Below, one piece after another: positions 23,100-45,330 of a DNA stretch of 64,000 nt. Made by a program: the position numbers and the translations under genes. Source of the DNA: Escherichia phage AV111; sequence record OR352941.1, one strand, 5' to 3'. The notes beneath the pieces were generated by a model. That model was not told the origin of the DNA, did not search any database, and saw only the letters and a list, made by a program, of their open reading frames with translations. Numbering within the stretch: the first letter of the stretch is position 1; each line of letters starts with the position of its first letter.

Positions 23100-23130
23100 A
23101 ATTAACTCCTTTGTTGTTTAATTACAGGTG

Positions 23131-23138
23131 TATTTATA
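23131..23138 (-). promoter_or_regulatory. late promoter TATAAATA (minus strand) about 32 nt upstream of the soc ATG
   Basis: exact T4 late consensus octamer. Confidence 0.6.
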
Positions 23139-23144
23139 ACTTAA

Positions 23145-24317: not shown

Positions 24318-24405
24318 ATATATCCTTTCAATTCAGTATAAAAGAGTTTAATTCTAACATTAATTTTATAAAGCGTAATAAATAATAGGTAACTAAGGAG
24401 ATATT

Positions 24406-24603
24406 ATGTTTAAACTTCCGTCGTTAATCAACGCTATTAAAGGCAATAAAAAGAAAACTGCTATCGCTGCAATAGTTGTAGGTGGCATTATTTCATGGAA
24501 CTTCGGGATTGCACCATTGTTAGTTGCCCATGGTATTATAGTTCCTTCCGTTCCATTGGATACTGTAGTTGATTTGGCCTTTGCTATTATAGGGCTTGTT
24601 TAA
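24406..24603 (+). CDS. small hydrophobic protein (65 aa) on the plus strand
   Basis: AAGGAG RBS 5 nt before the ATG; intergenic between 56 and 61; convergent with gene 61. Confidence 0.45.
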   Translation: MFKLPSLINAIKGNKKKTAIAAIVVGGIISWNFGIAPLLVAHGIIVPSVPLDTVVDLAFAIIGLV

Positions 24604-25622
24604 ATCTTCGAATAACGAGATAATCTCATTTTAGCATGCAACCCACTTGAAATATTCTGTTTCATATATTCTAAAATTTCTTGTGGTGTTGCATTTTCTT
24701 TCATTACCATATCATTCACATCCTTTGATCTCCATGGAGCTAGGTCCCAGAACATGACACGTTCGCCTGCATCAACTAATCGCTTCATGCGAGCTATAGT
24801 ATCCGGATGCCTAGGTTCATTATCCATTACCCATACCCGACGTTCTTTAAATGGTACCACATCTAAATCTATTGAGCCGCCTGTAATAGCGATTGCATTG
24901 GGTATGAATAAACTATCAATAGGGCCTTCCATTACCCAGACGTCTCCTTCCTTAACACGTTCAACACCATAAATTTTTGTTGCAGACTCAAACGCTTTAA
25001 TAGTGATATATTTCTGAGGAGCATCTTTGCGAAGTGCACGTCCTTGAAATGACTCGGCCTTCCCATCTTTATTAAAAATAGGAATCACTAAACGTGGTTC
25101 AGGAATCTCTTTCTTATACGTACCCGGTTGAATCTTGTTGACCAATTTGGGCCATTCTAATGTGAACCATAATCTGTTCCATGATTCTTTAGGAATACAC
25201 CGAGACTTAACATATTTCACAATAGGATGCTCTTCAGGCAACTTGTCTAGACGAGAACAAGACGGCAAAGAATTTATAGTCTTTTTCTCTGGCTCCGGTT
25301 TAGCTTCAGGAACCTTTTCAATCTTTGGTTCCATTCTAGCTTTTTCTTTACGAACTTCCATTAGATATTCGCGATAAAGCTCTTCATCATACTCTTTTAA
25401 GTATCCGGAAATTGTATTGTGGTATTGACAGTTATAGCAATGCACATTACCAGGAGTACCGCCATAATACCATCCGCGAGCTTTCATTGCATCTGTCTGG
25501 GAGTCGCCACAAACTGGACATCGAAATGTTAATTTAAATGTGCTTGAATTATTGATTTGTCTAAAACGAGGTAGGTGAGAAAACGCACGATAAGCAAATT
25601 CATTATCTATCCATTCAGCCAT
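24600..25622 (-). CDS. 61: DNA primase gp61
   Basis: 340 aa; zinc ribbon CPVCGDS...CYNC plus TOPRIM; matches T4 gp61. Confidence 0.9.
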   Translation of the reverse strand: MAEWIDNEFAYRAFSHLPRFRQINNSSTFKLTFRCPVCGDSQTDAMKARGWYYGGTPGNVHCYNCQYHNTISGYLKEYDEELYREYLMEVRKEKARMEPKIEKVPEAKPEPEKKTINSLPSCSRLDKLPEEHPIVKYVKSRCIPKESWNRLWFTLEWPKLVNKIQPGTYKKEIPEPRLVIPIFNKDGKAESFQGRALRKDAPQKYITIKAFESATKIYGVERVKEGDVWVMEGPIDSLFIPNAIAITGGSIDLDVVPFKERRVWVMDNEPRHPDTIARMKRLVDAGERVMFWDLAPWRSKDVNDMVMKENATPQEILEYMKQNISSGLHAKMRLSRYSKI

Positions 25623-25635
25623 AGTATTCTCCAGA

Positions 25636-25655
25636 GGCCTTAAATTAATAAGGCC
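25636..25655 (-). promoter_or_regulatory. hairpin GGCCUUA-N6-UAAGGCC in the gene 61 leader, just upstream of its GGAG RBS
   Basis: 7-bp perfect inverted repeat seen in sequence. Confidence 0.4.
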
Positions 25656-25661
25656 ATCTTA

Positions 25662-26156
25662 TCACAACTTATTAATATTTACTTTAATTCGCTTTCTTTT
25701 CTTGGAAGGAATTTGTTCGGGACCTTTATTTACGACTGCACCTGTAGTTGTTCCTGATGCAATAGCTTGAGGGCTGCCACCTGAATCGCCAGCAACCATA
25801 TCCTCAAATAAAGGGAGCTCTTTAAATATTTCTTTCTGTTGTTCTTCCGTAATGTTATAGCGTGAAGCTACAGCACTCCAGGCAGACATCATTGAGGCCA
25901 TTCCATTAAGACCTGGAACAGTGCTCATCATTCGCTTCATTGAACGAACTGAAGCATGAAAAGGTGTATACGCCGCTTTTTCTTCGGGAGTAGAAGGACG
26001 TTTAAGAACACTTCCACGTTCATCGATGATTTTGGCTTCGTATGCTTTCCATTCGGTAAAAGGTTTTTGCATTAGTCGAATAAACTTATATGCGTAAACA
26101 GAATCTATTGCAGTGTTAATAATACCCATAGGTACCTCCTGAGTATATTTAATCAA
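25662..26156 (-). CDS. hypothetical protein (164 aa)
   Basis: ORF in track. Confidence 0.5.
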   Translation of the reverse strand: MIKYTQEVPMGIINTAIDSVYAYKFIRLMQKPFTEWKAYEAKIIDERGSVLKRPSTPEEKAAYTPFHASVRSMKRMMSTVPGLNGMASMMSAWSAVASRYNITEEQQKEIFKELPLFEDMVAGDSGGSPQAIASGTTTGAVVNKGPEQIPSKKRKRIKVNINKL

Positions 26157-26347
26157 TTACAAAGATTGCTTTGTCACCATTTATATCTGTGACTTCATAT
26201 GTAGTGCCTTCATACTGTGGAATATTCCAAATTACACCGTCATTAGCTTTTACGCTAATATGGCATTAGTGTTTTGAAACAACTTCATAATCTTCAAAAC
26301 TTGTAAAAACACTAATTTTAGAACCAGTGCAAATTGCAGTAGTCATT

Positions 26348-27007
26348 TTAACCTCGATTCATAAATGCATTAAATATTTGGTCATCAACAGAAATTTCTA
26401 ATTCAACTTCAATTGCTTCAGCCTTTTCTTCAGGTGGTAATTCGTATCCACACACTACAATTTTTTCATCGATATCAAAATATACAGAAGCAATACGATT
26501 AATGTTACTTTCAGTTAAGTCTAAATCAACATCAACATCTTTTTGACCTACGCTTAAAGGATAACTAATACGAGTTATTTTATTATCTTTAACAAAGAGT
26601 CCACCAACATACTCTGTGCTACGTTTGAAGTTTACACGTTTCCGAATTGAAAGATATGATACATCTTTACCGTGAGCTCGGCTCATAGGACATAATGAAT
26701 AGCTAGAATAAGAGATGTCAAATCCTACACCTTCAATATGAGCCAACGTGTCATGATTAAACCAATTATAATCATATGCCAAATCCATTATATTGTAATA
26801 TGTGAAAGGCACAGGATTAACATCATATGTTGTACCTTTAAAATCTGCCCAGGCAACGATTTCGTTATCTTTAACAATTACAAAAATTACACCAATATGG
26901 TATCCGTTATTATTTTCATTCGGCGTTATATTATAACATTGTGCATTAGGAAATTTACCATATTTAAATGGCGCGTTTTTGTGCATATAATAAATCATAT
27001 TATTCAC
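26348..27007 (-). CDS. hypothetical protein (219 aa)
   Basis: ORF in track. Confidence 0.5.
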   Translation of the reverse strand: MNNMIYYMHKNAPFKYGKFPNAQCYNITPNENNNGYHIGVIFVIVKDNEIVAWADFKGTTYDVNPVPFTYYNIMDLAYDYNWFNHDTLAHIEGVGFDISYSSYSLCPMSRAHGKDVSYLSIRKRVNFKRSTEYVGGLFVKDNKITRISYPLSVGQKDVDVDLDLTESNINRIASVYFDIDEKIVVCGYELPPEEKAEAIEVELEISVDDQIFNAFMNRG

Positions 27008-27293
27008 CTGTGATTTCGGTTACGATATCTTTGTTATCGAAATTAGGGTCACAATACAAAACATAGTTGTACTGCATGATACCGCCAGACTTAAGTTGTT
27101 CAACAACTTTATTAACCATATTAGGACGGTCTCGTTTAGTGATGTTCATGATATCAGAGAAGATTTGTTGTTCAACATCTTCTTGATTTGCAGTCATTGA
27201 CCACTCACAGAGGTCTTTATCATAACCTGCCGTAACTGGAGCCGGTGCACATGATACTGCAAGTAAGATTGCTGCCAATGATAACTTTTTCAT
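27000..27293 (-). CDS. sp: periplasmic spackle-like protein (signal peptide)
   Basis: 97 aa with N-terminal signal peptide; position between 61 and 41; T4 Sp is 97 aa. Confidence 0.55.
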   Translation of the reverse strand: MKKLSLAAILLAVSCAPAPVTAGYDKDLCEWSMTANQEDVEQQIFSDIMNITKRDRPNMVNKVVEQLKSGGIMQYNYVLYCDPNFDNKDIVTEITGE

Positions 27294-27322
27294 TTTAACT
27301 CCTTAGTTGATTTGATAGGACT

Positions 27323-27352
27323 ACTATACCATAGTCCATCTATAATGTAAAC
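27323..27352 (-). promoter_or_regulatory. early promoter (-35 GTTTAC, 18 nt, -10 TATAGT) with AGGACTA/TAGTCC repeat
   Basis: read from sequence. Confidence 0.5.
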
Positions 27353-27356
27353 AAGT

Positions 27357-27605
27357 TTATTCTTTTTCGCGAATAATAATTACTTGTTGAGGCTGCTGAG
27401 CAGATTTCTTTTCGGCGACGATAGACCAAATTAAAGTTCCAATCCAACCAATCATCGTCCAGTTAAAGAGTAAAGATACAAAGAAGATTGCTGTTGTGCT
27501 TTTTGTGCCACGAATAAGTGCGATTACCCAAGGCAACATGTAAATGATGATTGAACCAATACCTGCGATTAAAACTGCTACTGAACTAGCTACGAATAAT
27601 TCCAT
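27357..27605 (-). CDS. small membrane protein (82 aa)
   Basis: two hydrophobic segments. Confidence 0.5.
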   Translation of the reverse strand: MELFVASSVAVLIAGIGSIIIYMLPWVIALIRGTKSTTAIFFVSLLFNWTMIGWIGTLIWSIVAEKKSAQQPQQVIIIREKE

Positions 27606-27666
27606 GTTAATTTCCTCTTGATTTGTTATGTTTATAGTATCTTGTTTTAACTTTGGTGTAAACCAA

Positions 27667-28035
27667 TTAATTAAATTTGTTTAAACGTTCAATACACTGG
27701 ACGTAGTTATTCGCGATTTGTTTCTGGGTAGGCTCTTTACCAGTTGTTTCAACATAGCGAATGAATGCGATTTCAGTAGCCTGTAGACAATGTTCTTTAA
27801 CGCGTTGTTCTTTTGACAATGCTACGGTATCAGAGTCACGATAACGTTGAGCATGGGCATCAGCTTGAATCATTCGATTACCTACAGTAACCGGGTCTTC
27901 CACTTCAACTTTAGGTTGGTCGTACTGTTTAACATTCGGATTGTAAATCAATTGGCCGACGTTATTAGGGATAAAGCCATGGGCACCACATCCGGTTAAT
28001 CCAAATACCATTGCTAAAGCGATTAATTTTTTCAT
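27667..28035 (-). CDS. putative lipoprotein (122 aa)
   Basis: signal peptide with lipobox LTGC. Confidence 0.55.
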   Translation of the reverse strand: MKKLIALAMVFGLTGCGAHGFIPNNVGQLIYNPNVKQYDQPKVEVEDPVTVGNRMIQADAHAQRYRDSDTVALSKEQRVKEHCLQATEIAFIRYVETTGKEPTQKQIANNYVQCIERLNKFN

Positions 28036-28063
28036 TTCAATTTCCTCTGTAGTTGATAGAAAG

Positions 28064-28093
28064 ATAGTAACACAGTATGTGGTGCTTGTAAAC
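28064..28093 (-). promoter_or_regulatory. early promoter (-35 GTTTAC, 18 nt, -10 TACTAT)
   Basis: read from sequence. Confidence 0.5.
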
Positions 28094-28095
28094 AG

Positions 28096-28308
28096 CTATT
28101 TTAAACTTTTTCGAAATTTGCGTTTTTCTTGACGAATCTGTCGTTTAGTCGGACGTACAGCAAATTTAACGAAGTCTACTTTGCCGTGTGGAAACTTTTC
28201 AGATGCTTCGCAGTCCATCATTAGTTCCCATCCTTCCAGAATAAGAGCTTTCCATTGTGTAGTTGATGCAAATTCGTATGTTGATGGTTTAAACACAGTT
28301 GAATACAT
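28096..28308 (-). CDS. small basic protein, RPTKRQ-tail family (70 aa)
   Basis: ATG at 28308 with GAGGA RBS; C-terminal VRPTKRQIRQEKRKFRK. Confidence 0.5.
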   Translation of the reverse strand: MYSTVFKPSTYEFASTTQWKALILEGWELMMDCEASEKFPHGKVDFVKFAVRPTKRQIRQEKRKFRKSLK

Positions 28309-28309
28309 A

Positions 28310-28501
28310 TTATCCTCTGAAATCAGCTTCAAAAACTTTCTCGTCATTAATAAATGCTTTAACTAATGCATTGTTCACTTCAGCAAGTTGTACCGTAACC
28401 CACTCGATTTCTTCGCGATCACCTGATAACATGATATCTTTAGTGAACATCTCACCGCTTTTAAACCAACCGATAAAAGTAACTTTAGTTAATTTGCTCA
28501 T
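28310..28501 (-). CDS. dmd: Dmd-like protein (63 aa)
   Basis: ATG at 28501; position upstream of 41 region; recollection of T4 Dmd is weak. Confidence 0.45.
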   Translation of the reverse strand: MSKLTKVTFIGWFKSGEMFTKDIMLSGDREEIEWVTVQLAEVNNALVKAFINDEKVFEADFRG

Positions 28502-28815
28502 ATTTCCTCGCAAAAGGCCCATTCAGCGTGATAAACTGTAGCACCTTTAGTATTATTCATTTGAACTACGTCTACCGGAGAAATTACTCGATAGAGACGT
28601 GGTTCACCTCCATAAGAGCGTGCTGCTCGTCCTGCATAAATCTTTGCTAAACCGATATCTTCAGTAAAGAATACACGATCCAAGTTTTTCTTACGTCCAG
28701 TTTCAGACAGAACTCCTGTTTCTTCAGGAGGACAAAGCATGTTTTCGATGTTAGCTGAACTACTTGAACCGTGATAAAAAATCTTAAATTCTGCTTTACA
28801 ATCGATGGTTTTCAT
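28498..28815 (-). CDS. hypothetical protein (105 aa)
   Basis: ATG start, GGAG RBS. Confidence 0.5.
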   Translation of the reverse strand: MKTIDCKAEFKIFYHGSSSSANIENMLCPPEETGVLSETGRKKNLDRVFFTEDIGLAKIYAGRAARSYGGEPRLYRVISPVDVVQMNNTKGATVYHAEWAFCEEI

Positions 28816-28841
28816 TTTGTTCTCCAGTAGTTGATAGGTCT

Positions 28842-28870
28842 ATAATAACACAACTACTGGAGAAGTAAAC
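28842..28870 (-). promoter_or_regulatory. early promoter (-35 GTTTAC, 17 nt, -10 TATTAT) inside a 14-bp inverted repeat that pairs the spacer with the RBS
   Basis: TTCTCCAGTAGTTG/CAACTACTGGAGAA perfect repeat spanning 28820..28864. Confidence 0.55.
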
Positions 28871-29245
28871 TTAAAAACGTAATTTAGATATATCCGCGTT
28901 GATTTCGTTTTGGTTTGCGTCGTATGCAATTAAACGAACCGCTTTAGATGGGTCATTCAATGCATAGAAATGATGGAACATTGCTCGAACGATATCACCA
29001 TTTACGAGTTCTACCTGGATAGGAGAACCTTTTTCGAGTTGGAAATGTTCATAAGCTTTGATGGTTCGTAGATAATCAAGTTTTTGATTTCCAGCTCCAA
29101 CTATTTGTACGATACGTTTGCCTGTGTTTTCCATATGAGATACAATAGTTTTAGGAGCAAGAATAACGTAGGTTGCCAGCGGAGAAACTACTTCAACAGT
29201 TGTGTTTTCGGTGATTGCAGTAAAAATTGCTTGAGACATATTCAT
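28871..29245 (-). CDS. hypothetical protein (124 aa)
   Basis: ORF in track, ATG start. Confidence 0.5.
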   Translation of the reverse strand: MNMSQAIFTAITENTTVEVVSPLATYVILAPKTIVSHMENTGKRIVQIVGAGNQKLDYLRTIKAYEHFQLEKGSPIQVELVNGDIVRAMFHHFYALNDPSKAVRLIAYDANQNEINADISKLRF

Positions 29246-29274
29246 AATGTTTTCCTCTTGGTTTGTGTAAGTAC

Positions 29275-29304
29275 ATCATATCATGCCTAGAGGAAGATGT
29301 AAAC
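29275..29304 (-). promoter_or_regulatory. early promoter (-35 GTTTAC, 18 nt, -10 TATGAT) with imperfect spacer/RBS inverted repeat
   Basis: TTCCTCTAGG vs CCAAGAGGAA, 9 of 10 pairs. Confidence 0.5.
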
Positions 29305-29311
29305 CCCGAAA

Positions 29312-29327
29312 GGAGACCGAAGTCTCC
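29312..29327 (-). terminator. hairpin GGAGAC-UUCG-GUCUCC immediately downstream of gene 41
   Basis: perfect 6-bp stem, UUCG loop; short U tail. Confidence 0.5.
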
Positions 29328-29333
29328 TTTTTA

Positions 29334-30776
29334 TTAAAATTTTAACTCATTGGCTAAGCTATCTAGGTCAGCACGTGTTGCTTTGGCTTTACCTACGCGT
29401 TCCGTACGATTCACCTCTGCCTGACGCATCTGAGCACCTGCGTTTTCATTTACTGTGTTAGGTGTGTTCATGCCTTCTTGCTCAATCTCAACCCATTTCT
29501 GATTGCCTTTACGTACACCCATCAGGAATTTATTCCACTTATTCTTATCGCCGTATCGTGATTTGATTTGTTTGATAAGTTGTTGTTCAGCTTGTGCAAG
29601 TTCTTCGGTTTCAATTACAGCCAACATGAAATCTGCCGTTGCTGGTAAACCTGCTGATTCTGCGATATCACTCATGTTCATGTCTGAAGCATCCCATGCT
29701 GCACGTCCTACTTGAGCTGCAGTCCATAGAACTGTTTCAGATTCTACTGCTAATGCACGAAGTTCTTCTGCGATAGCTTTAACTAATGTGTAGCTATTTT
29801 CAGTGTAAACTCTGATACGACAAGACCCACAAATACCTAAGTAATCAACCATGATTACAGACGGCACAAAGTTCTTCTTAAGTTTTAACTCATTAAGCAA
29901 TGCACGAAATGTATTAGCATTAGCTCCACCAGTAGGATACTGTTTAACTACTAAACGTCCTAATGTGGATTTTGAACGCCATTTTTCCATCTTGGCTTTA
30001 TATTCAGCATAAGATACGTTACCATCATCGATATCATCGAGTGATACGTCAAGCATGTTTGCATCTATACGCTTAGCACAAACTTCTTCAGCCATTTCCA
30101 TGGAAATATAAAGAACATTATGACCTGTTTGAAGATAATCTGCAGCAAGTGAACAAAGGCCTAAAGATTTACCGACGTTAACACCAGCCATTAAAACGTT
30201 TAGTGTACCTGTTTCAGCACCACCTTTGGTGATTTTATTCAAAATGTTTAATTTGAACGGGACCTTACGTGCTTTATTTAGATAAGAAAGCCAGCGTGCT
30301 TCGTAGTCTTCCATCCAGTCGTGTCCAACATAACTATCGAACGAAATTGAAAGTGCTTGACGCATAATATCAGGAATAGCTCCTACGTCAGGCATTTTCT
30401 TGTTACGTTGTTCTGGAGGTAGTTCAGCATTAGACTGAATCTCAATGATTTTGGATGTAGCATTATACATCGCTTTTTGCTGGACATATTTCTCAGTTTC
30501 TTTAACCAACCATTCGTGGTCTTCAGGAGTATCAGCCAATTTTTCAATTAGGTCTGAAGTTCCTTTATATTCGGCTTCAGTTAAAGAACTGTTATCTAAA
30601 GCCACCTTTAACGCATTGATAGATGGCATTGCATTATATTCGTTAACGTGGCTCTTTATAATTTTAAAGACATTTTTTGCCGGTCCACGCTCAAAATACT
30701 CAGAATCCATATAAGGCCAGACCTTAGAAAAATAAGCCTGGTCATATACGAGATGAGACAAAATAATTTCTACCAC
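29334..30776 (-). CDS. 41: replicative DNA helicase gp41 (DnaB-like)
   Basis: 480 aa; strong match to T4 gp41 throughout as recalled. Confidence 0.95.
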   Translation of the reverse strand: MVEIILSHLVYDQAYFSKVWPYMDSEYFERGPAKNVFKIIKSHVNEYNAMPSINALKVALDNSSLTEAEYKGTSDLIEKLADTPEDHEWLVKETEKYVQQKAMYNATSKIIEIQSNAELPPEQRNKKMPDVGAIPDIMRQALSISFDSYVGHDWMEDYEARWLSYLNKARKVPFKLNILNKITKGGAETGTLNVLMAGVNVGKSLGLCSLAADYLQTGHNVLYISMEMAEEVCAKRIDANMLDVSLDDIDDGNVSYAEYKAKMEKWRSKSTLGRLVVKQYPTGGANANTFRALLNELKLKKNFVPSVIMVDYLGICGSCRIRVYTENSYTLVKAIAEELRALAVESETVLWTAAQVGRAAWDASDMNMSDIAESAGLPATADFMLAVIETEELAQAEQQLIKQIKSRYGDKNKWNKFLMGVRKGNQKWVEIEQEGMNTPNTVNENAGAQMRQAEVNRTERVGKAKATRADLDSLANELKF

Positions 30777-30785
30777 GATAACTCC

Positions 30786-31127
30786 TTAAAAGAATTTAAA
30801 TTTTTTCTTGGTTCGTTCATTAAAAGCTTGTTGTACTTGCATTGTAACACATTTTTCAACATGTGGTGCAAGTTCTGCTTTTCTGTCCTGGTCAAGAACT
30901 GCAAAGTCCATTACGATTTTACCACCAACCCAGTCTAGTTTTGTAATATAGACTATATGATGGGAACCGTCTTCAAGTGTAATCAGAATCTCTTGAATGA
31001 CATTTTCCATTGCTGAACGGATAATTTTAAGAGATTCATTAAACACTCGTTCTTTGCGAATGTCCTCCCCTTCCGAAGAAGGGGATTCATCAACGATTTC
31101 TAGATTTAAATCATCGAGATTATTCAT
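30786..31127 (-). CDS. 40: gp40-like protein
   Basis: ATG at 31127 overlaps uvsX stop (ATGAATAA); about 113 aa; synteny. Confidence 0.6.
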   Translation of the reverse strand: MNNLDDLNLEIVDESPSSEGEDIRKERVFNESLKIIRSAMENVIQEILITLEDGSHHIVYITKLDWVGGKIVMDFAVLDQDRKAELAPHVEKCVTMQVQQAFNERTKKKFKFF

Positions 31128-32292
31128 CGAAATCTTCCATTTCGTCAAGGTCGTTTTCAATATCTGCTGCAGACGGAGCATCAGAAGTTTTAACCGGAAC
31201 TTTAGTTGTTGCTTTGCAATTAATAAGGTCATTAACAGCGTCATCAACTTCTTTAATAGAAGAGATAGCACCTAGTTTATATTTAGTTTCAATTGCATCT
31301 CGGAAAGGCTTATGTTTAAACAACGGCCCCCAGAATTCTACACAATCAGTAGCTTTAGCACGCCATGATTTCTCTTCACGAATCATTTCGCCTGTTTCTT
31401 CGTCAAGGAATTCGCGAGCATACCAACCGGCTTTAGGCTTAACCACAAAACCGATTTCAGTTGCCATTTCTAGCAAGCCGCTGAATGGGTCGATACCACC
31501 ATCAAAATTAACCGTGATCGGGAAAGTAGATTTCTCTTTAACTGTACGAGATTTTTCTGCTTTCAACGTGAAGTCATAACCGGTCAATTCTGTACCTTCT
31601 TTAACCTGACGTTTAGAGATAAAAAATACCGTGTTGGCAGAATAAAGAATACCTGTACCACCACCCATAATCTCTTTAGGATATAGTCCGCCGATTTCCA
31701 TTGCTGTATGGTTGATTGCAACACATGGAATATCTTTAATAGTCAGATAAGGAGTCACAATGCGGAACAGAGATTTAAGTGCCTTAGCACGAGACATATC
31801 ACCTACAACTTTCTCGTTCAACGCATCTTCGGTTTCTTTCTTAGATGCAGTATTACCGATTGAATCGATAAAGATAATAACTTTATCACCGCGTTCAATC
31901 GCGTCAAGCTGATTAGTCATATCAACTTTAAGTTGTTCGACAGATTGAATCGGAGTATGAACTACACGGTCTAAATCAACACCCATTGAACGAAAATAAG
32001 ATTCTGAAGCACCAAATTCTGAATCATAGAACAAACAAATTGCATCTTTATATTTCTTCATATATGCTGCAACCATGGTCAGTCCAAACAACGTTTTAAA
32101 GTGTTTAGAAGGAGCAGCAAAAATAGTCAAGCCTGATTGCAATCCTGCATTCAGAGCACCACCTAGTGCAATATTCAACATCGGAATACGAGTAGGGACT
32201 TCATCACGATTATTAAACAGCTTAGACTTAGTCAAGTCTGCAGTCATTTTAGAAGTAGAAGCTTTAATCAGACGAGATTTTAAATCAGACAT
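31120..32292 (-). CDS. uvsX: UvsX recombinase (RecA-like)
   Basis: 390 aa; matches T4 UvsX length and N-terminus. Confidence 0.95.
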   Translation of the reverse strand: MSDLKSRLIKASTSKMTADLTKSKLFNNRDEVPTRIPMLNIALGGALNAGLQSGLTIFAAPSKHFKTLFGLTMVAAYMKKYKDAICLFYDSEFGASESYFRSMGVDLDRVVHTPIQSVEQLKVDMTNQLDAIERGDKVIIFIDSIGNTASKKETEDALNEKVVGDMSRAKALKSLFRIVTPYLTIKDIPCVAINHTAMEIGGLYPKEIMGGGTGILYSANTVFFISKRQVKEGTELTGYDFTLKAEKSRTVKEKSTFPITVNFDGGIDPFSGLLEMATEIGFVVKPKAGWYAREFLDEETGEMIREEKSWRAKATDCVEFWGPLFKHKPFRDAIETKYKLGAISSIKEVDDAVNDLINCKATTKVPVKTSDAPSAADIENDLDEMEDFDE

Positions 32293-32345
32293 TGTATTTT
32301 TCCATAGGCATCATTATATTTTACTCATGTTTAAAAGATAAGATG

Positions 32346-32370
32346 ATTATATACTAAGAGTTATACAGCA
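32346..32370 (-). promoter_or_regulatory. middle-type promoter upstream of uvsX (MotA-like box TGCTGTA, 12 nt, -10 TATAAT)
   Basis: read from sequence; box deviates from TGCTT by one base. Confidence 0.45.
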
Positions 32371-32390
32371 TTTAAAACTTTAAATGGCTC

Positions 32391-32939
32391 TTAACGAGCC
32401 CATTTAATGATTTCTGTAATCAAATTATTACGTTCGCTTGCATTAAATCCTATAACTTTGTTAGAACCATCATGATTAAGTAATTGATACGTTTGGATTT
32501 TGTTATGAATTGCAAACTCTTCAAAATGTGAAATGACTGTATTAAAACCGAATGAAGACAAAGTAATAAGGTCGTCTTCAAAACTTTCAGACATTTCGTT
32601 ACGTGTTAAAATAATTGTGAACACATCATGGTTTTGGCAAAGACGAACATAATCCTGTTCATAAACGTCAAGAACCGAGTCCGCATCTTGTCGAATACGT
32701 CCATAAACCCAGTTACTAATATATCCACGGTCTAACAGATAAATCTTAGTAGGGTCTAAATAATTCAACATCGTTTCGAAACAGCCAACTTCATTTCGAG
32801 ACTTAACATCGAAACGTCCATCAACTGTTCGTTTAGGGAAATCAATCTTTACATATCTTTCACTAATTTCCATTATGTCATTAATGAAAGTTGTTTTACC
32901 AGCATTATCTGGGCCATCTACTAAAATAATTTTAGCCAT
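32391..32939 (-). CDS. P-loop kinase-like protein (182 aa)
   Basis: Walker A DGPDNAGKTT at the N-terminus; sits where T4 has beta-gt. Confidence 0.55.
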   Translation of the reverse strand: MAKIILVDGPDNAGKTTFINDIMEISERYVKIDFPKRTVDGRFDVKSRNEVGCFETMLNYLDPTKIYLLDRGYISNWVYGRIRQDADSVLDVYEQDYVRLCQNHDVFTIILTRNEMSESFEDDLITLSSFGFNTVISHFEEFAIHNKIQTYQLLNHDGSNKVIGFNASERNNLITEIIKWAR

Positions 32940-32940
32940 T

Positions 32941-33840
32941 TTATTCCTCGATTACGACATCTTCATATTTAGGTATATTATACGGCGAAGAAATTAAAGC
33001 GTTAAAGTAGATGAACTCACCAAGACCTGGATGGAATACTTCTTCAGGATTTTCGAAATATTGAATCTTCGGACGTCCTTTAAGAATTTGATAGTACTCA
33101 GTTTTAGTTGGATTAAAAATTCGAATCAGCGCTTCTTCAGGATACTTATTTCTGTCGAAACTATTATTTGGATCAGTTATATAAAGCGGTTGACCTAATT
33201 GAATTGCGCATTCAACCACTTGTTCAAAACGATAGCATGGGTCACTAATTCGAAATGGATGAAAAATACCATCTAGATGAATAGGAGCCAAATCACCTAC
33301 AAGACGCTGCATGACGGAAGGACGTATAACTTTCTGCGTTACGATAATCTTATTACCATCTGCACCTGCGTTAACCAGCACTTCTTTTTGACGTTCATTC
33401 AACACAGTAGTTTGAAGTGAACGATTAACAGACAACATGTCGGTTTTTAAGAATTCATCAATATAAAAACGTGGTTTATTAGGGTCTGCAGTGATATTGA
33501 AATTGAATTCTACATCAAAAGCGCCGTCATATCCAGTGATATCTGTGATTAGAAAATCGCAATCATAATAAGCAATTAATGAATCAACTACAAATTCATT
33601 TTCAGACCAGAAATATTTACGAGTGTTATACGCGTTATCTTTATACCATAATGGAACAAACTTAAATTCTGGAAAAAGACGTTCGCATTCTTTAATATCA
33701 GATGCATTACGTGGATATGTAATCACATCACCCGGATTAGCACGGTGCAAATGAAGTTGGAAGTTGCCATCCTTAAGGATAGCATACTGTCCAGTTTCAT
33801 AAGACCGCATACTCAAGATAGGTACGCGGAAAATAGCCAT
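32941..33840 (-). CDS. hypothetical protein (299 aa)
   Basis: ORF in track; part of the cassette between uvsX and gene 43. Confidence 0.5.
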   Translation of the reverse strand: MAIFRVPILSMRSYETGQYAILKDGNFQLHLHRANPGDVITYPRNASDIKECERLFPEFKFVPLWYKDNAYNTRKYFWSENEFVVDSLIAYYDCDFLITDITGYDGAFDVEFNFNITADPNKPRFYIDEFLKTDMLSVNRSLQTTVLNERQKEVLVNAGADGNKIIVTQKVIRPSVMQRLVGDLAPIHLDGIFHPFRISDPCYRFEQVVECAIQLGQPLYITDPNNSFDRNKYPEEALIRIFNPTKTEYYQILKGRPKIQYFENPEEVFHPGLGEFIYFNALISSPYNIPKYEDVVIEE

Positions 33841-34556
33841 TAGTCAAGGAATCCTTTAACATAATCAAAATCACGTTCAAACACATGGGCACTTACCATG
33901 GTATGAGTATAATCACCAACTTCTACACCACATTCGTTAGCGATATAATGAAGTAATTTTCCTTGGAGATAAAAATCCAACTGCATAACAACAGCACAGT
34001 TCTGAGAACGCATATGACAGTGGGTATAAAGCTTACCATCACGAATATAATAAGTCACTGAGTCAGTACATGGATATTCAAGCGTTTCGTCTGAATCAAG
34101 CAAAGCCTGATCAGAACTTTCTAGAATTTGGAACACAACTCTTCGAGAGTTAGGCTTCTCTTTAAGTTCTTTTAGAAGAGCTGGTAATTGAGCCGCAATG
34201 CGAGGACCATAGAAAGTGTTGAAGTTCGCCGGCAAAACATCTGATTTTGGTTTAGAAATAAATTTAGCGACATTAGGATATGCCTTAAACGCTTCTTCTG
34301 CGTTGGTACCACCAGAAATCATAAACTTCCAGAAGTCTTCGGCATATTCATAAGAGATGCGGTTAATACGTGGGTCGGTCATTTTGAATGATGACGGAGT
34401 GTCAACAACTACTGTCATAGACCCAATTTCATTACAACGTCCAATACGAGAATCAGTTACGAATTCCGGGTTTTCTAAAATTTCACGATTGACTGCTTTA
34501 AATGCGGTTTGAAAATCTGCGGCTTTGATATATTTCATTGTGTTATGTTTTCCCAT
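33840..34556 (-). CDS. thymidylate-synthase-family pyrimidine hydroxymethylase, divergent gp42-like
   Basis: motifs NSRR, EYPCT (catalytic Cys), YYIRDGK, HMRSQN align with T4 gp42 DSRR, FMCT, YLIRDKK, MRSND but overall identity is low. Confidence 0.65.
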   Translation of the reverse strand: MGKHNTMKYIKAADFQTAFKAVNREILENPEFVTDSRIGRCNEIGSMTVVVDTPSSFKMTDPRINRISYEYAEDFWKFMISGGTNAEEAFKAYPNVAKFISKPKSDVLPANFNTFYGPRIAAQLPALLKELKEKPNSRRVVFQILESSDQALLDSDETLEYPCTDSVTYYIRDGKLYTHCHMRSQNCAVVMQLDFYLQGKLLHYIANECGVEVGDYTHTMVSAHVFERDFDYVKGFLD

Positions 34557-34597
34557 GTTTACCTCAATACAATTATTATATACTCAATTCGTAAAGC

Positions 34598-34837
34598 TTA
34601 TTTGAATTTCTTGGCAGTGTTGATATAACGTAAAGCTTCAGCATCGATACTTCCAAGAACACTATGAAGAAATGCATCAGCGTAGTATTCCAATTGAACA
34701 GATTCTTTAATCACTTTAGCCGCTTTAGTTTCAAACAGGCCCATCAGGGCCTTTTTAAGAATTTGTTCATTAGTGTTCAGTTTCATAGTCAAAATCTCTT
34801 CATTAAGTTGGTGGTTAAAAGTTTTTCTAGAAATCAT
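34598..34837 (-). CDS. hypothetical protein (79 aa)
   Basis: ORF in track. Confidence 0.4.
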   Translation of the reverse strand: MISRKTFNHQLNEEILTMKLNTNEQILKKALMGLFETKAAKVIKESVQLEYYADAFLHSVLGSIDAEALRYINTAKKFK

Positions 34838-35994
34838 TCCGGGTACCTCAAAGCGTCATCAGAGTTAGTTATATCAATAATAGATATAGAGTTTTCTGCT
34901 AACCCGTTTTTAGATAATTGACGTTTATAATATCTTTCACAATATGTACACGTCGTCCCGCAGATTTCATTAGCACAATCGAAATCTGGATGTCTGAACC
35001 ACCTTTTTTCTAAAAAGCCATCTAACAAAGAGGTTTCAATATTTACTGTATGTGAAAACTCAGTTTCGTTTTCAAGAGTGAAAATAGTCTCTAAAGGCTT
35101 CCACAGTTCTAACAAATTACCTTCAAACTTTTCAGAAGCGTATGCTTCAAGAACTTTCAAAATGTAGTCTGTGCTACCTGTACGTCCTGAAACTTTGAAT
35201 TGAGTGATACCAATATCATTATAAAGTTTCAAATCTTGAGGACGAACAAAACGAGTTCTCAACCAGTTAAATGGGTCTGTATCACGAGCTTTAATACAGT
35301 GCTGCATAGGATATCCGTTTAAGGATTTAGCATCATCAGCTGTAACATCAGTACTATGGAAAATATAGCAAGAGTCACGATAGCTACAATGTGTTGTATA
35401 CCCTTTACCAGCATTAGAACAGAACTCATTTACAAGAACTTCAAATATTATATTGTTCTTATTGCAAAACTCTGCTGCACGCTTCAGGAAAGAAACTGAA
35501 CGGTTCTTATGAATTCCACAGCAGACCTTTTTGATATTATATTGGTCATGCAAGTATTTGATTTGAGTTACAGCATCGACATGTAGAATTGTTGAAACTT
35601 CAATCTCAATGTCTTTATTGACTTCACGAACAATTTCCATAACAACAGGGTTAGCGATAGTAATACGCCATACGCCTATTGACCAAAGATACTGAACATA
35701 ATCCTGAATAGCTTTCTTCTTCCACTCAACTAGTTCTCTTTTTGAACCAGGATTTATCGTGTTGAGTGTATAGTTAAAGCAAATACCTAATTCGTTACAA
35801 CGTTTAACGTAATCTTCTAACATCTTTTTGTCAACGTCAGGAAGCCTAAAATCAGGTCTGGCTGCTACAAAAGCCATTTCTCTTGTAGAGCCGTATACTT
35901 CGTTTATCAAGCTATTAGGATAGGTTTTATTGAGCTCTACGATTTTATCAAGAAGAGCTAAATCAAAATTCGTTCCGATTTTAAAAGTATTCAT
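34834..35994 (-). CDS. Cys-cluster protein (386 aa), possible Fe-S enzyme
   Basis: C-terminal CX4CX3CX2C cluster and an EFCSNAGKGYTTHCS segment reminiscent of the peptidase U32 signature. Confidence 0.5.
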   Translation of the reverse strand: MNTFKIGTNFDLALLDKIVELNKTYPNSLINEVYGSTREMAFVAARPDFRLPDVDKKMLEDYVKRCNELGICFNYTLNTINPGSKRELVEWKKKAIQDYVQYLWSIGVWRITIANPVVMEIVREVNKDIEIEVSTILHVDAVTQIKYLHDQYNIKKVCCGIHKNRSVSFLKRAAEFCNKNNIIFEVLVNEFCSNAGKGYTTHCSYRDSCYIFHSTDVTADDAKSLNGYPMQHCIKARDTDPFNWLRTRFVRPQDLKLYNDIGITQFKVSGRTGSTDYILKVLEAYASEKFEGNLLELWKPLETIFTLENETEFSHTVNIETSLLDGFLEKRWFRHPDFDCANEICGTTCTYCERYYKRQLSKNGLAENSISIIDITNSDDALRYPE

Positions 35995-36056
35995 TTTTTT
36001 TGCATCTCGCGTTAATTGATGCGATGGTTTTTTTTTTGCAGGTCTTACTTAAATTA

Positions 36057-36458
36057 TTATAGATTCGGTTTATATGATTTAAATGTTTCGAATTCGCCTT
36101 TATTCATAAGAGCTTTGAATTCATCAGGACGCATAGCTTTGTCGTCGATAATCCAATCATATACTGGTTTATGTGTTAGCAAATTATGGTACTTCAAACC
36201 AATGTTTTCCAAGTTCTGAATAAGACTTGGGAGAATGTCAATTGCTATACGACCAGGACCTACTGACTTCATACCACGAGCAGTGTAAAGCGTTATGGTA
36301 TGCCCTGCATCATACAGGGCATTAATGGCAGACACCATTTCGACGTCTGGTTTGAAGTTCACGTAATCACGATTGTTATTCCATTCCGTGATGCAATCAT
36401 CGACATCAAAACAAAGATTAAGCATGTTTTCTACACAGTGCATTAGATTCGTTCCCAT
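36057..36458 (-). CDS. HAD-superfamily phosphatase (133 aa)
   Basis: motif I FDVDDCIT (DxDxT), motif II TARG, motif III WIIDDK. Confidence 0.65.
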   Translation of the reverse strand: MGTNLMHCVENMLNLCFDVDDCITEWNNNRDYVNFKPDVEMVSAINALYDAGHTITLYTARGMKSVGPGRIAIDILPSLIQNLENIGLKYHNLLTHKPVYDWIIDDKAMRPDEFKALMNKGEFETFKSYKPNL

Positions 36459-38128
36459 TGATGAGTGATATCGCCACCGATTGGACGATAAGAAACACCA
36501 GTTTCTTTATCAGTTAGTACCCATTTACCAGGATTTTTTGTAATCAGAGTAGCCGTTACAGGTTCTGCTACGTCATAACTAATAGAGCCGTCTTGAAGTA
36601 CACGGCCCATGTTACGTAATTGCTTAGTCAGAAGTTCCATACCTTTATAATATGCTGCTACCGCTTTAAGTGGATTATTCTTGAAATAACCACCTAATGC
36701 AATCCAGATAATTGCTACAGCCAAATGATGATACTCGTTAAACGAACTCATCTTTCCATATTTGTAAACTAATGGATTGATGTTAATAGTCACATTACAA
36801 GTTGTTTCATCAATAGTAAACTGTCCCCAGGCCGGATTAGCATTGAATTCATCATAACCTGAAACAGCATAAAGCACTTTAGCTTCATCATACAATTTTG
36901 GCCCGTAAATCTTGGTTTCGCCAAAATATCCACGAGGGTCGATAAACTTGACTTCGCCGTTATCAGTAATCATAGTATTACTGAAGTTCGGGTCACCATG
37001 AATAACAGAGTACTGTCCCTGAGAACGGTTATGATAACGAATAAGGTGTTCTAAAGCTTGTTTCAGCATTGGCTTCAGACGTCCAATCTTAGTGTAGTTC
37101 ACATGTGTGATTTTACCAAATGAATCAATCAATGGTTGAATACTTTCACAACGATCAATAACTTTCGTATAGAATTCTTTAGTGAAATCACGACGAACAG
37201 TTTCAGGACTTACAAAATAAGTGTCTGTGCTGAATTTCAGTGCATCTAAAATTGCATCAACAATTTGTGGACGAGCAAGACTTGATTTGGATTTAATATA
37301 TTCAAATGCCGGCTTACCTTTAATGCGTTCCATTTCAAAGTTATTTTCATTAACAGAAACTAACTGAGGAACTGAATCTGATTTCACTTTAAGATACCAC
37401 GAAATCTCATCTTTCTGAAGAGCTCGACCCTGTTCGGTTAATGCGAATTTAGTTACAGTTTCTTCACCAATTTCAACTGCATTAAAACTACGATTAAGTT
37501 CACGAACTTCATGAGCTTTTTCAAGTTTAGGCATATCACCTAAATCAATTAGATTCATAAGCTCTGATTTATTGAATGCGCTGCCGTAAAGGAATTCTAC
37601 GAAATCACGTCCTTTGCAGTATTCATGAATTTCCTCATCGGTAGAACCCATATAGAATTCCCAGTCTTTGAACTGATAAATTCCTACAACATTACCACCT
37701 GTTGAACCTACGTTAGTGATATTTTCACCGTCGAAATTATATCGACATTCATCACCCTTAACATAGATTGCGTTAACATTCCAAGACCATGAACCAAAAT
37801 CAGGAATAATATCACACCAGTTAACAATTACGTTATGGCCGTCTAAATCTTTGTGTAATTTAGCAAGAGCATAAGCAGAACCATACGCTTCATCAACTGT
37901 ACGAATAGTCACATTGAACCCTTCTTGCTCACAATAAGCTCGAACAGTTTCAGCAAATTTTGAATGAACTACTACAATAATTTCATCTGCGCCAAGGTCA
38001 GAATAAATTGTATACAAATTGCTCAGAATAGTGTCTTGTTTATAGTTAACAAGCACCTTAGGAATATGATGCGTTATTGGATACAAACGAGTTGCCAGTC
38101 CAGCACCAAGAATAACAGCTTTTTTCAT
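36443..38128 (-). CDS. bifunctional sugar-1-phosphate nucleotidyltransferase / kinase (561 aa)
   Basis: N-terminus MKKAVILGAGLATRLYPIT (GxGTRLxPxT); C-terminal HGDPNFSN (HxDxxxxN) kinase motif. Confidence 0.7.
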   Translation of the reverse strand: MKKAVILGAGLATRLYPITHHIPKVLVNYKQDTILSNLYTIYSDLGADEIIVVVHSKFAETVRAYCEQEGFNVTIRTVDEAYGSAYALAKLHKDLDGHNVIVNWCDIIPDFGSWSWNVNAIYVKGDECRYNFDGENITNVGSTGGNVVGIYQFKDWEFYMGSTDEEIHEYCKGRDFVEFLYGSAFNKSELMNLIDLGDMPKLEKAHEVRELNRSFNAVEIGEETVTKFALTEQGRALQKDEISWYLKVKSDSVPQLVSVNENNFEMERIKGKPAFEYIKSKSSLARPQIVDAILDALKFSTDTYFVSPETVRRDFTKEFYTKVIDRCESIQPLIDSFGKITHVNYTKIGRLKPMLKQALEHLIRYHNRSQGQYSVIHGDPNFSNTMITDNGEVKFIDPRGYFGETKIYGPKLYDEAKVLYAVSGYDEFNANPAWGQFTIDETTCNVTININPLVYKYGKMSSFNEYHHLAVAIIWIALGGYFKNNPLKAVAAYYKGMELLTKQLRNMGRVLQDGSISYDVAEPVTATLITKNPGKWVLTDKETGVSYRPIGGDITHQWERI

Positions 38129-38156: not shown

Positions 38157-38181
38157 ATTGTACACTATTCTAGTTAAAGCA
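38157..38181 (-). promoter_or_regulatory. MotA-type middle promoter for the nucleotidyltransferase/kinase gene (TGCTTTA, 12 nt, -10 TACAAT)
   Basis: read from sequence. Confidence 0.5.
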
Positions 38182-38313
38182 TTCATACTTTGCTTGTAGT
38201 CCAATCATAATCCATCCAATTACAAGTGTTGGAATCATTACCGGAGCCGTTAAGCTCCAGTAGATAGTCATGACAAGCATCAATAGTAAAAGTCCTATTG
38301 TTATTGCTTTCAT
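38170..38313 (-). CDS. small hydrophobic protein (47 aa)
   Basis: ATG overlaps SIS gene stop (ATGA); below ORF-track cutoff. Confidence 0.35.
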   Translation of the reverse strand: MKAITIGLLLLMLVMTIYWSLTAPVMIPTLVIGWIMIGLQAKYECFN

Positions 38314-38945
38314 TGTTCGCCTCGTAACATGGCACCTAGTGCACCGCCTGGATGGAACTTAAGGAAATCATTAGAGGTAAATCCACGTTCAGACGAAAGG
38401 TTGATAGCAAACGTATCGATAAGCGCTAACAACAATGTAGTGGACATTGTCGGAGCTAAAGAGTTCTCGTCAACTTCTACCGCGATACCGGTACAGAACG
38501 TATAATCAAAAAGAGCTTCGTATTCTTGTGGAATGTCAGGGTTACAATGTAACAGAATCTGTTTAACCTGAGGACGAATCATACGAAGATGTTTAGCAAC
38601 ACCTATCATTTCTTCAGTCTTACCAGAACGACTGATGTGAACTAATACATCATTAGGTGCAATAAATCCTGCGTCACCATGAGAATAATGCCCAGTGTTC
38701 AAGTACATACTCGGGATACCGAGTGAAGCAAATGTCTCAGAAGCTTTAGTTGCGATATTAGCATTCTTACCAACACCTGTAATAATTACCCGGCTTTCAT
38801 AATTGCTAAGTCCGGGGCGTCGAAGAGTTTCTAGAATAGCATTATAACGAGCAGGGTTTTGACTAATTACTTTGGCCATAGCGGCCAAAGAAGAAGCTTG
38901 TTTTATGATTGCGTCAATAGCGATAGTAATAGGAGTAGTTTTCAT
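38310..38945 (-). CDS. SIS-domain sugar-phosphate isomerase, KdsD/GutQ-like (arabinose-5-phosphate isomerase-like)
   Basis: ITGVGKN, HISRSGKTEE, APTMSTT, HPGGALG motifs align with the KdsD SIS domain as recalled. Confidence 0.75.
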   Translation of the reverse strand: MKTTPITIAIDAIIKQASSLAAMAKVISQNPARYNAILETLRRPGLSNYESRVIITGVGKNANIATKASETFASLGIPSMYLNTGHYSHGDAGFIAPNDVLVHISRSGKTEEMIGVAKHLRMIRPQVKQILLHCNPDIPQEYEALFDYTFCTGIAVEVDENSLAPTMSTTLLLALIDTFAINLSSERGFTSNDFLKFHPGGALGAMLRGEQ

Positions 38946-45325: not shown

Positions 45326-45330
45326 AATTA

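Follow-up and report, generated by a model that had tools for sequence, protein, structure and literature searches.

A thymidylate-synthase-fold protein in the gene 42 position of Escherichia phage AV111 is very probably a dCMP 5-hydroxylase orthologous to RB69 gp48 and HY126 AfhB

RB69-like phages carry 5-hydroxycytosine in their DNA, which is subsequently arabinosylated (PMC13326640). The enzyme responsible in RB69, gp48, converts dCMP to 5-hydroxy-dCMP with a bound flavin and an oxygen atom taken from O2 (Lee et al., NAR 2026, PMC13326640). Together with its dNMP kinase, gp48 yielded 5-hydroxy-dC (5hodC; 243 Da) in Escherichia coli DNA, with a shift to 245 Da under 18O2, and the purified protein released FMN (PMC13326640). 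In the same assay T4 gp42 gave 5hmdC, whereas RB69 gp48 gave 5hodC and not 5hmdC. Nine further homologs with Asn at the position of ThyA Asp169 (D169N), the change regarded as diagnostic for 5-hydroxy-dCMP synthases, also produced 5hodC (PMC13326640). The position of ThyA Asn177 is an established determinant of cytosine versus uracil (references cited in PMC13326640). Structures of the corresponding protein of phage HY126, AfhB, have been deposited under the titles “phage HY126 dCMP hydroxylase-AfhB with substrate dCMP” (9IQU) and “Monooxygenase dependent on riboflavin with dCMP and FAD” (9IQC), such that the flavin named differs by source (FMN in Lee et al. [PMC13326640]; FAD and riboflavin in the PDB titles). 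HPLC-MS of NicPhage DNA identified 5-ara-dC and 5-ara-ara-dC, with the sugar directly on C5, and the same later work judged the previous assignment of hydroxymethyl groups to RB69 DNA erroneous (PMC13390438).

The window analyzed here is a stretch of 64,000 nucleotides of phage AV111 (OR352941.1). On its minus strand, an open reading frame at 33840–34556 with an ATG start encodes a protein of 238 amino acids with a thymidylate synthase (TS) fold, which we interpret, with a probability of about 0.93, as a dCMP 5-hydroxylase (5-hydroxy-dCMP synthase) orthologous to RB69 gp48 and HY126 AfhB. The enzyme is already known, having been described in 2025–2026 for 98 to 99% identical proteins by product analysis, isotope labelling and crystal structures; the present analysis establishes orthology, signature residues, fold and gene context for the window protein. 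It is identical to RB69 ORF048c (gp48, NP_861738.1) at 236 of 238 residues (99%) and ∼98% identical to PDB 9IQC/9IQU. A model built with AF2 from an alignment (pLDDT 87.3) matched 9IQC with TM scores of 0.94/0.95 and an rmsd of 1.6; it was used instead of a single-sequence AlphaFold model, which was unusable (pLDDT 37). At the DNA level, identity to NicPhage across the hydroxylase gene was 99.7%. The gene is preceded by a GAGG Shine-Dalgarno sequence 5 nt upstream of its start, within a 41-nt intergenic leader (34557–34597, minus strand) that also holds a MotA-box-type site (GCTTTA-N11-TATAAT, 34575–34597). Judged by the T4 middle-promoter consensus, this site is a predicted middle promoter; the window has 27 occurrences of the pattern GCTTWA-N11-13-TANNNT, where 6.3 would be expected, and one of them is that in the hydroxylase-gene leader. 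A scan of the cluster for sigma-70 promoters and terminators stayed at chance level (24 sites versus 26.7 expected), and the window yielded no tRNA genes.

Membership of the TS superfamily with a nucleophilic cysteine, as the original prediction had proposed, was upheld by Pfam PF00303 (E = 2.3e-15; 56.9 bits against a cut-off of 24.3; residues 122–235 only) and by Cys163. PHROG 160 (“thymidylate synthase”) also matched the protein (E = 7e-47), and tblastn with T4 gp42 and E. coli ThyA recovered this open reading frame and no second TS-superfamily gene in the window. All motifs listed in the original prediction are present (SRR, residues 137–139; PCT, 162–164; IRD, 171–173; MRSxN, as MRSQN at 182–186). 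However, the last of these had been taken as a signature of dCMP hydroxymethylase; because T4 gp42 has MRSND at this place, MRSxN is instead a marker of the hydroxylase. Aligned to ThyA, C163 corresponds to C146, N186 to D169, D194 to N177 and E160 to L143, and none of the four varies among 43 homologs, the most distant being 52% identical. Asp194, occupying the established determinant at ThyA Asn177, is predicted to select cytosine, and the earlier view that the pyrimidine substrate could not be read from sequence was therefore too pessimistic.

Database names point to two other readings of the gene. Several records are named “dCMP hydroxymethylase” or “deoxycytidylate 5-hydroxymethyltransferase,” which was also how RB69 was read in 2018 and the chemistry originally predicted for AV111: the protein would be a diverged but conventional folate-dependent enzyme, a functional gp42 making 5-hydroxymethyl-dCMP. 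The TS fold, Cys163, Asp194 and the acidic residue at ThyA L143 are indeed common to T4 gp42, and the gene lies in the syntenic slot with a DNA glycosyltransferase gene next to it. Nonetheless, we regard this reading as very improbable, as RB69 gp48, 99% identical to the window protein, makes 5-hydroxy-dCMP and not 5-hydroxymethyl-dCMP, giving 5hodC where T4 gp42 gives 5hmdC (PMC13326640); the hydroxymethyl assignment of RB69 DNA is erroneous according to PMC13390438; and Asn186 stands in place of the Asp of T4 gp42 (D171) and ThyA (D169). Identity to T4 gp42 is 25% over 218 aligned positions (E = 3e-13), and with T4 gp42 as the query the match to 9IQC (E = 3.8e-6) is no stronger than that to bacterial ThyA. 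The strong divergence from gp42 noted in the original prediction is thus real; high identity on alignment, which would have made the protein the ordinary ortholog, was absent. Even less credible is a canonical thymidylate synthase making dTMP, as many phage records annotate the gene. GenBank names and the PF00303 and PHROG 160 matches agree with it, but the protein falls far below every NCBIfam thymidylate synthase cut-off (best model, 68.1 bits versus 174.55; others, 17 to 50 versus 108 to 427), carries Asp rather than Asn at ThyA-177 and Glu rather than Leu at 143, matches Pfam in the C-terminal half only and lacks ∼45 C-terminal residues of ThyA. The published product of RB69 gp48, 5hodC (PMC13326640), likewise argues against dTMP and for the dCMP 5-hydroxylase.

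Gene order supports the original placement of the hydroxylase in the gene 42 position, T4 having uvsX-segA-b-gt-42-imm-43 where the window has uvsX-kinase-glycosyltransferase-hydroxylase-orf79-U32-HAD-NTP transferase/kinase-small ORF-SIS isomerase-43. The hydroxylase belongs to a replaced nucleotide-modification module, in agreement with the original proposal that these enzymes were specifically diverged or replaced. The surrounding replication proteins had been put at 75 to 90% T4-like; measured values were 62% for gp43, 68% for UvsX and 86% for gp41. The region is syntenic with RB69 18000–36000 (97.9% DNA identity), and the hydroxylase gene lies inside the published arabinosylation cluster, flanked by isomerase, nucleotidyltransferase/kinase, phosphatase, glycosyltransferase and kinase genes. 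All cluster genes described here are on the minus strand. Downstream, the ATG of a DNA glycosyltransferase gene (32941–33840; 299 amino acids; PHROG 3891 and synteny) overlaps the hydroxylase stop codon (TAATG); its product is the predicted arabinosyltransferase 1 (RB69p046:47; role from Table 1 of PMC13326640). It is followed by a thymidylate-kinase-like nucleotide kinase (RB69p045; 32391–32939; PHROG 761 thymidylate kinase, E = 3e-45; RB69 annotation and Table 1 of PMC13326640). Upstream lie orf79, encoding a 79-amino-acid protein (RB69ORF049c; 34598–34837; PHROG 8601, function unknown; no Pfam or NCBIfam match), and a gene for a U32-family protein with conserved cysteines that is putatively Fe-S binding (RB69p050; 34834–35994; Pfam PF01136, E = 7e-11). 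Beyond these are a HAD-type sugar phosphatase (RB69p051; HY126 AfhF analog; 36057–36458, the annotated JK36 start corresponding to window position 36443), assigned from NCBIfam TIGR01689 (capsule biosynthesis phosphatase, E = 2e-13) and the JK36 and RB69 annotations; an intact bifunctional sugar-1-phosphate nucleotidyltransferase/kinase gene (RB69p052:53; HY126 AfhE analog; 36443–38128), with Pfam NTP_transferase and NCBIfam nucleotidyltransferase matches and weak Pfam matches to kinase families; and an arabinose-5-phosphate isomerase with a SIS domain (RB69p055; 38310–38945; Pfam SIS; NCBIfam KpsF/GutQ, E = 9e-32, and KdsD, E = 4e-30). The roles of the phosphatase and of the nucleotidyltransferase/kinase are those given in PMC13326640. 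Two further genes of the minus strand lie outside the cluster: a second DNA glycosyltransferase, the predicted beta-arabinosyltransferase 2 (RB69p003; 366 amino acids; 9573–10673; 96.4% DNA identity without gaps to RB69 2520–3620; role from Table 1 of PMC13326640), and the gp56 dCTPase (23145–23667; 88% DNA identity to RB69 gene 56; Pfam dUTPase_2 match in the C-terminal part), an enzyme that provides dCMP while clearing dCTP.

Product, origin of the oxygen in O2, bound flavin and crystal structure were shown by others for near-identical proteins and may be extended to the window protein by homology. On this basis, Cys163 would add to C6 of dCMP, a step common to all thymidylate-synthase-type enzymes, with Asp194 picking cytosine. 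The activated C5 would then take a hydroxyl from a flavin-derived oxygen species (reduced flavin plus O2), which would replace the one-carbon unit from methylene-tetrahydrofolate, and elimination of the cysteine would free 5-hydroxy-dCMP; the order of these chemical steps and the source of the reduced flavin are here inferred. Phage and host kinases would raise 5-hydroxy-dCMP to the triphosphate, gp56 would remove dCTP and gp43 would put 5-hydroxy-dC into DNA, where the adjacent glycosyltransferases would attach arabinose, as one unit or two, in ether linkage to C5. The NDP-arabinose donor would come from the neighboring isomerase, kinase/nucleotidyltransferase and phosphatase. Dependence of the enzyme on O2 sits uneasily with complete replacement of cytosine in a gut host living anaerobically; nrdD and nrdG, which are anaerobic reductase genes, are present in the phage.

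A tentative solution, which we consider clearly less likely than not, is that the TS-like enzyme may be the aerobic half only of a two-route supply of 5-hydroxycytosine, the U32 protein encoded two genes upstream (34834–35994) being an O2-independent route under anoxia. The U32 protein may act as a prephenate-dependent pyrimidine C5 hydroxylase on a deoxynucleotide or on DNA. Among its 30 homologs ten cysteines are invariant, and the family profile matched E. coli RlhA, which requires prephenate and Fe-S clusters (PMC5727448), with a probability of 72% in hhalign (E = 3.5e-5; UbiU, 4%). A genuine chorismate mutase gene (Pfam CM_2, E ∼1e-10) separates the U32 gene from the TS-like gene in 51 related phages. 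The TS-like gene was found in 373 phage records; the U32 gene occurred in 221 records, all from phages of Enterobacterales or Shewanella, and was not seen in 57 Acinetobacter and 20 Rhizobium phage records carrying the TS-like gene. On metagenome contigs, U32 homologs ∼50% identical adjoin genes for dCMP deaminase, deoxynucleoside kinase and 5′-nucleotidase. The invariant cysteines, RlhA-like profile, chorismate mutase neighbors, host distribution, metagenome neighbors and the phage's own nrdD and nrdG all favor an O2-independent route. Against it, E. coli Dhakavirus phages carry the TS-like gene without a U32 gene, the present Mosigvirus window has no detectable chorismate mutase, the Bas46 record labels the U32 gene a UDP-arabinose biosynthesis enzyme and Lee et al. 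list the RB69 U32 protein as “sugar or heterocycle reductase” (PMC13326640). The U32 protein had no sequence match in the PDB and matched NCBIfam UbiU only below threshold. A strict rule tying the U32 gene to facultatively anaerobic hosts was rejected because of these same Dhakavirus phages. The protein encoded by orf79, which occupies the slot used by chorismate mutase in other genera, was also considered as a diverged chorismate mutase and rejected: it gave no CM_2 match even at E = 10, shares 17 to 24% identity with phage chorismate mutases, and phages phiR1-RT and 92A1 carry an orf79 homolog plus a chorismate mutase. Such a route may be a new lead that complements the dCMP 5-hydroxylase explanation and replaces nothing in it; if real, it would allow full DNA modification in anoxic hosts. 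How an O2-dependent step serves phages of gut bacteria is a question made directly testable by the neighboring U32 and chorismate mutase genes.

The enzyme class is notable in that a folate-type TS fold has been turned into a flavin/O2 monooxygenase, seeding glycosylated 5-hydroxycytosine modifications of DNA. Database entries that name this protein “thymidylate synthase” or “dCMP hydroxymethylase” should read dCMP 5-hydroxylase, and phages with the hydroxylase gene are expected to contain arabinosyl-5-hydroxycytosine DNA, with consequences for restriction, CRISPR and sequencing behavior.

Among known systems, the U32-family enzymes RlhA (ho5C2501 of 23S rRNA) and TrhP (ho5U of tRNA) resemble the TS-like enzyme in giving a C5-hydroxylated pyrimidine product, but their fold is unrelated to it. 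E. coli ThyA (1AOB and others) has the same core fold and equivalents of C146, R126/R127, R166/S167, Y94 and H207; the window protein differs from it by D169N, N177D and L143E at ∼20% identity, ends ∼45 residues short of its C-terminus and is not matched by Pfam in its N-terminal half. Outside the hydroxylase clade, the closest solved structure is MilA, the CMP 5-hydroxymethylase of Streptomyces (5JNH, 5B6D; Foldseek TM 0.81–0.83; 24% identity), which is likewise a cytosine-specific TS homolog, but acts on the ribonucleotide CMP by folate-dependent hydroxymethylation and has a longer chain (∼318 residues). T4 gp42 (1B49, 1B5D, 1B5E) has in common with the window protein the TS fold, the SRR phosphate-binding motif, the Cys nucleophile (C148/C163), the cytosine-selecting Asp (D179/D194), an acidic residue at ThyA L143 (D145/E160) and a syntenic position followed by a DNA glycosyltransferase gene. 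It differs at T4 Asp171, which is Asn186 in the window protein, the Asp at T4 171/ThyA 169 being conserved in folate-dependent members; T4 gp42 uses methylene-tetrahydrofolate and water to make 5-hydroxymethyl-dCMP, whereas the hydroxylase clade uses flavin and O2 to make 5-hydroxy-dCMP. HY126 AfhB (9IQC, 9IR2, 9IQU) and RB69 gp48 have the same length, signature residues and gene neighborhood as the window protein. The latter differs from AfhB by five substitutions (S17T, Q31E, D85N, K87E, A107V) and from gp48 by two (D85N and A107V), no signature position being touched in either case. At least 90% of 43 homologs have Asp at position 85, where the window protein has Asn, and the identical N85 protein is encoded by many isolated phages, its sequence cluster (P0001) having 157 member sequences.

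The gene at 33840..34556 (−) encodes a 238-aa protein that is a dCMP 5-hydroxylase and, as such, is already known. The open reading frame (ORF) begins with ATG, preceded by a GAGG ribosome-binding site 5 nt 5′ of it, and its product is identical to RB69 ORF048c (gp48) at 236 of 238 residues, which establishes orthology. Three PDB entries are ∼98% identical to the protein; 9IQC is titled “Monooxygenase dependent on riboflavin with dCMP and FAD” and 9IQU “phage HY126 dCMP hydroxylase-AfhB with substrate dCMP” (both released 2025-07-16). In RB69 DNA, 5-hydroxycytosine bears one or two arabinose units, ether-linked at C5 (Lee et al., Nucleic Acids Res 2026, PMC13326640). When RB69 gp48 was expressed together with its phage dNMP kinase, 5-hydroxy-dC (243 Da) appeared in E. 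coli DNA, the nucleoside mass with gp48 moved from 243 to 245 Da under 18O2, and purified gp48 was yellow and released FMN (PMC13326640). As cited in that paper, He et al. (Nat Chem Biol 2026) report a crystal structure of the HY126 protein with flavin and reconstitution in vitro. Product, O2 origin of the oxygen and bound flavin have been shown by others for near-identical proteins; for the AV111 enzyme the present analysis shows orthology, signature residues, fold and gene context. An “arabosyl-hydroxymethyl-cytosine” assignment for RB69 was called erroneous in a later paper, where 5-ara-dC and 5-ara-ara-dC were detected by HPLC-MS in NicPhage DNA (PMC13390438). Near-identical DNA matches to the hydroxylase gene occur in 175 phage records, all RB69-like Mosigvirus, the best (99.7%) being Shigella phage JK36 and Escherichia phages moha and NicPhage. 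The original prediction of a divergent thymidylate-synthase-family hydroxymethylase was right on family, on the gene 42 position and on replacement of the modification module, but not on the chemistry.

The ORF is real, and all four motifs first noted in it were recovered (SRR, residues 137 to 139; PCT, 162 to 164; IRD, 171 to 173; MRSQN, 182 to 186). Pfam PF00303 (thymidylate synthase) matches residues 122 to 235 only (E = 2.3 × 10−15; 56.9 bits against a threshold of 24.3), the protein falls below every NCBIfam thymidylate-synthase cutoff, and in alignment its C terminus stops ∼45 residues short of that of ThyA; no second member of the superfamily was found in the window. The hydroxylase clade is defined by Asn at E. 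coli ThyA Asp169, Asp at Asn177 and an acidic residue at Leu143 (Lee et al., PMC13326640). Alignment with E. coli ThyA (sequence checked against PDB 1AOB), T4 gp42 and four family members placed Cys163 at ThyA C146 (T4 gp42 C148), Asn186 at D169 (D171), Asp194 at N177 (D179) and Glu160 at L143 (D145), and none of the four varies among 43 homologs with identity down to 52%. MRSxN, originally taken as a hydroxymethylase signature, is instead a hydroxylase marker, since T4 reads MRSND, and the pyrimidine substrate, held to be unreadable from sequence, could have been predicted as cytosine from Asp194. An alignment-based AlphaFold model (pLDDT, 87.3) superposes on 9IQC with a TM score of 0.94, followed by MilA (TM ∼0.82, 24% identity) and then ordinary thymidylate synthases. 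Codon 85 (34302 to 34304) encodes Asn where at least 90% of the 43 homologs, RB69 and HY126 included, have Asp; this is probably a tolerated polymorphism, since the same N85 protein is found in many Mosigvirus isolates.

In the proposed pathway, addition of Cys163 at C6 of dCMP would activate C5 for attack on a flavin-derived oxygen species, and elimination of the Cys would free 5-hydroxy-dCMP. The base would enter DNA via kinases, gp56 dCTPase (23145 to 23667) and gp43, and arabinose would be added from NDP-arabinose by the glycosyltransferases at 32941 to 33840 and 9573 to 10673, with NDP-arabinose presumably made by an isomerase (38310 to 38945), a kinase/nucleotidyltransferase (36443 to 38128) and a phosphatase (36057 to 36458). 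The glycosyltransferase start codon overlaps the hydroxylase stop codon (TAATG), and a MotA-box-type site (GCTTTA-N11-TATAAT; 34575 to 34597, −) immediately precedes the hydroxylase gene. T4 middle-promoter-like sites (GCTTWA-N11-13-TANNNT) number 27 in the window against 6.3 expected, 19 of them on the minus strand; some, such as those at 34575 to 34597, 32977 to 33000 and 38157 to 38180 (all −), sit just 5′ of genes for the hydroxylase, the kinase and the nucleotidyltransferase.

Two genes upstream of the hydroxylase lies a U32-family protein (34834 to 35994, −), which may offer a second path to 5-hydroxycytosine. It is only predicted to be a “sugar or heterocycle reductase” by Lee et al. 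(PMC13326640), and the Bas46 record labels it a putative UDP-arabinose enzyme. Ten Cys are conserved without exception in 30 homologs, and hhalign pairs the family profile with E. coli RlhA at 72% probability (E = 3.5 × 10−5) but with UbiU at only 4%. RlhA is the 23S rRNA 5-hydroxycytidine synthase, and prephenate is the product of chorismate mutase. Cytidine hydroxylation by RlhA needs prephenate and Fe-S clusters (PMC5727448). A genuine chorismate mutase gene sits between the U32 and thymidylate synthase (TS)-like genes in Enterobacter phage Entb_45 (L014:5158-5397; CM_2 E = 2 × 10−10) and Serratia phage LC53 (L015:3660-4004; CM_2 E = 2 × 10−11), and by tblastn at the same gap in 51 phage records. 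Among phages of Enterobacterales and Shewanella, 221 records carry the U32 gene at ≥82% identity, and it is more conserved across phage genera than the TS-like hydroxylase (68 to 80%); none was seen in phage record matches among Acinetobacter and Rhizobium phages carrying the TS-like gene, and one Acinetobacter cluster inspected directly is without it. Homologs ∼50% identical lie among nucleotide-metabolism genes on metagenome contigs (L006:8001-9086; L007:8001-9098), adjoining dCMP deaminase, deoxynucleoside kinase and 5′-nucleotidase genes: a 466-kb contig carries dCMP deaminase, thymidylate kinase, UDG, Pol III alpha and radical SAM/SPASM genes, the other NT5C, deoxynucleoside kinase, radical SAM/SPASM, a second U32 and a nucleoside deoxyribosyltransferase-like gene. 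AV111 also carries intact anaerobic ribonucleotide reductase genes, nrdG and nrdD (54166 to 56450, −). Together, the invariant Cys, RlhA-like profile, chorismate mutase neighbor, cofactor needs of RlhA, host range, nucleotide-gene neighbors and nrdD/nrdG suggest that the U32 protein is a candidate O2-independent hydroxylase on a prephenate-dependent path. Against such a route, Dhakavirus of E. coli has no U32 gene, and the 79-aa orf79 (RB69ORF049c; 34598 to 34837, −), in the chorismate mutase slot of other genera, is not detectable as that enzyme. Orf79 matched no detectable family, its sequence rejects a chorismate mutase assignment, and in phages phiR1-RT and 92A1 an orf79 homolog occurs alongside a chorismate mutase.

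Phage records with a tblastn match to the hydroxylase number 373 (Escherichia, 176; Acinetobacter, 57; Klebsiella, 26; Rhizobium, 20; others), and a protein database search returned 379 cluster representatives, the identical sequence representing a 157-member cluster. The same protein is variously named thymidylate synthase, thyA, dCMP hydroxymethylase, deoxycytidylate 5-hydroxymethyltransferase, peptidase and hypothetical protein; no name among the matched public records reflects the published activity.

The window differs from RB69 by several homing-endonuclease-like insertions. A 390-aa ORF (23145 to 24317, −) joins an HNH/NUMOD3 homing-endonuclease-like N-terminal part, not in RB69, in frame and without a stop codon to gp56 dCTPase, and DNA identity to RB69 drops to 88% in gene 56 beside it, from ∼96% elsewhere. 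Four other insertions relative to RB69 (10716 to 11528, 44576 to 45334, 56441 to 57262 and 59051 to 59347, all −) comprise one HNH/NUMOD3 ORF in the interval from the second glycosyltransferase to gene 39, two seg-like ORFs (YYIGSK motif) at the gene 45/rpbA and gene 49/nrdD gaps, and a 98-aa ORF without family. Beside a seg-like insertion, the first ∼70 residues of NrdD are unlike RB69, as expected from endonuclease-driven co-conversion.

Compared with T4, the hydroxylase is 25% identical to gp42 over 218 positions (E = 3 × 10−13), so the divergence from gp42 originally noted is confirmed, and the high identity that would have refuted it was not found; with gp42 as query, the closest solved relative of the AV111 protein scores E = 3.8 × 10−6, no better than bacterial ThyA. 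Synteny with gene 42 holds: T4 reads uvsX-segA-b-gt-42-imm-43, and the window uvsX, kinase, glycosyltransferase, hydroxylase, orf79, U32 protein, HAD phosphatase, nucleotidyltransferase/kinase, small ORF, SIS isomerase and gene 43. Neighbors were expected to be 75 to 90% T4-like, which is true of gp41 (86%) but not of UvsX (68%) or gp43 (62%). The 18 kb around the hydroxylase gene are 97.9% identical to RB69. The glycosyltransferase (32941 to 33840, −; 299 aa) and the nucleotidyltransferase/kinase (36443 to 38128, −; 561 aa) are each one intact ORF in the window, while the RB69 reference splits them into p046/p047 and p052/p053. Lee et al. put these splits down to sequencing error (PMC13326640), a view that the intact AV111 reading frames support.
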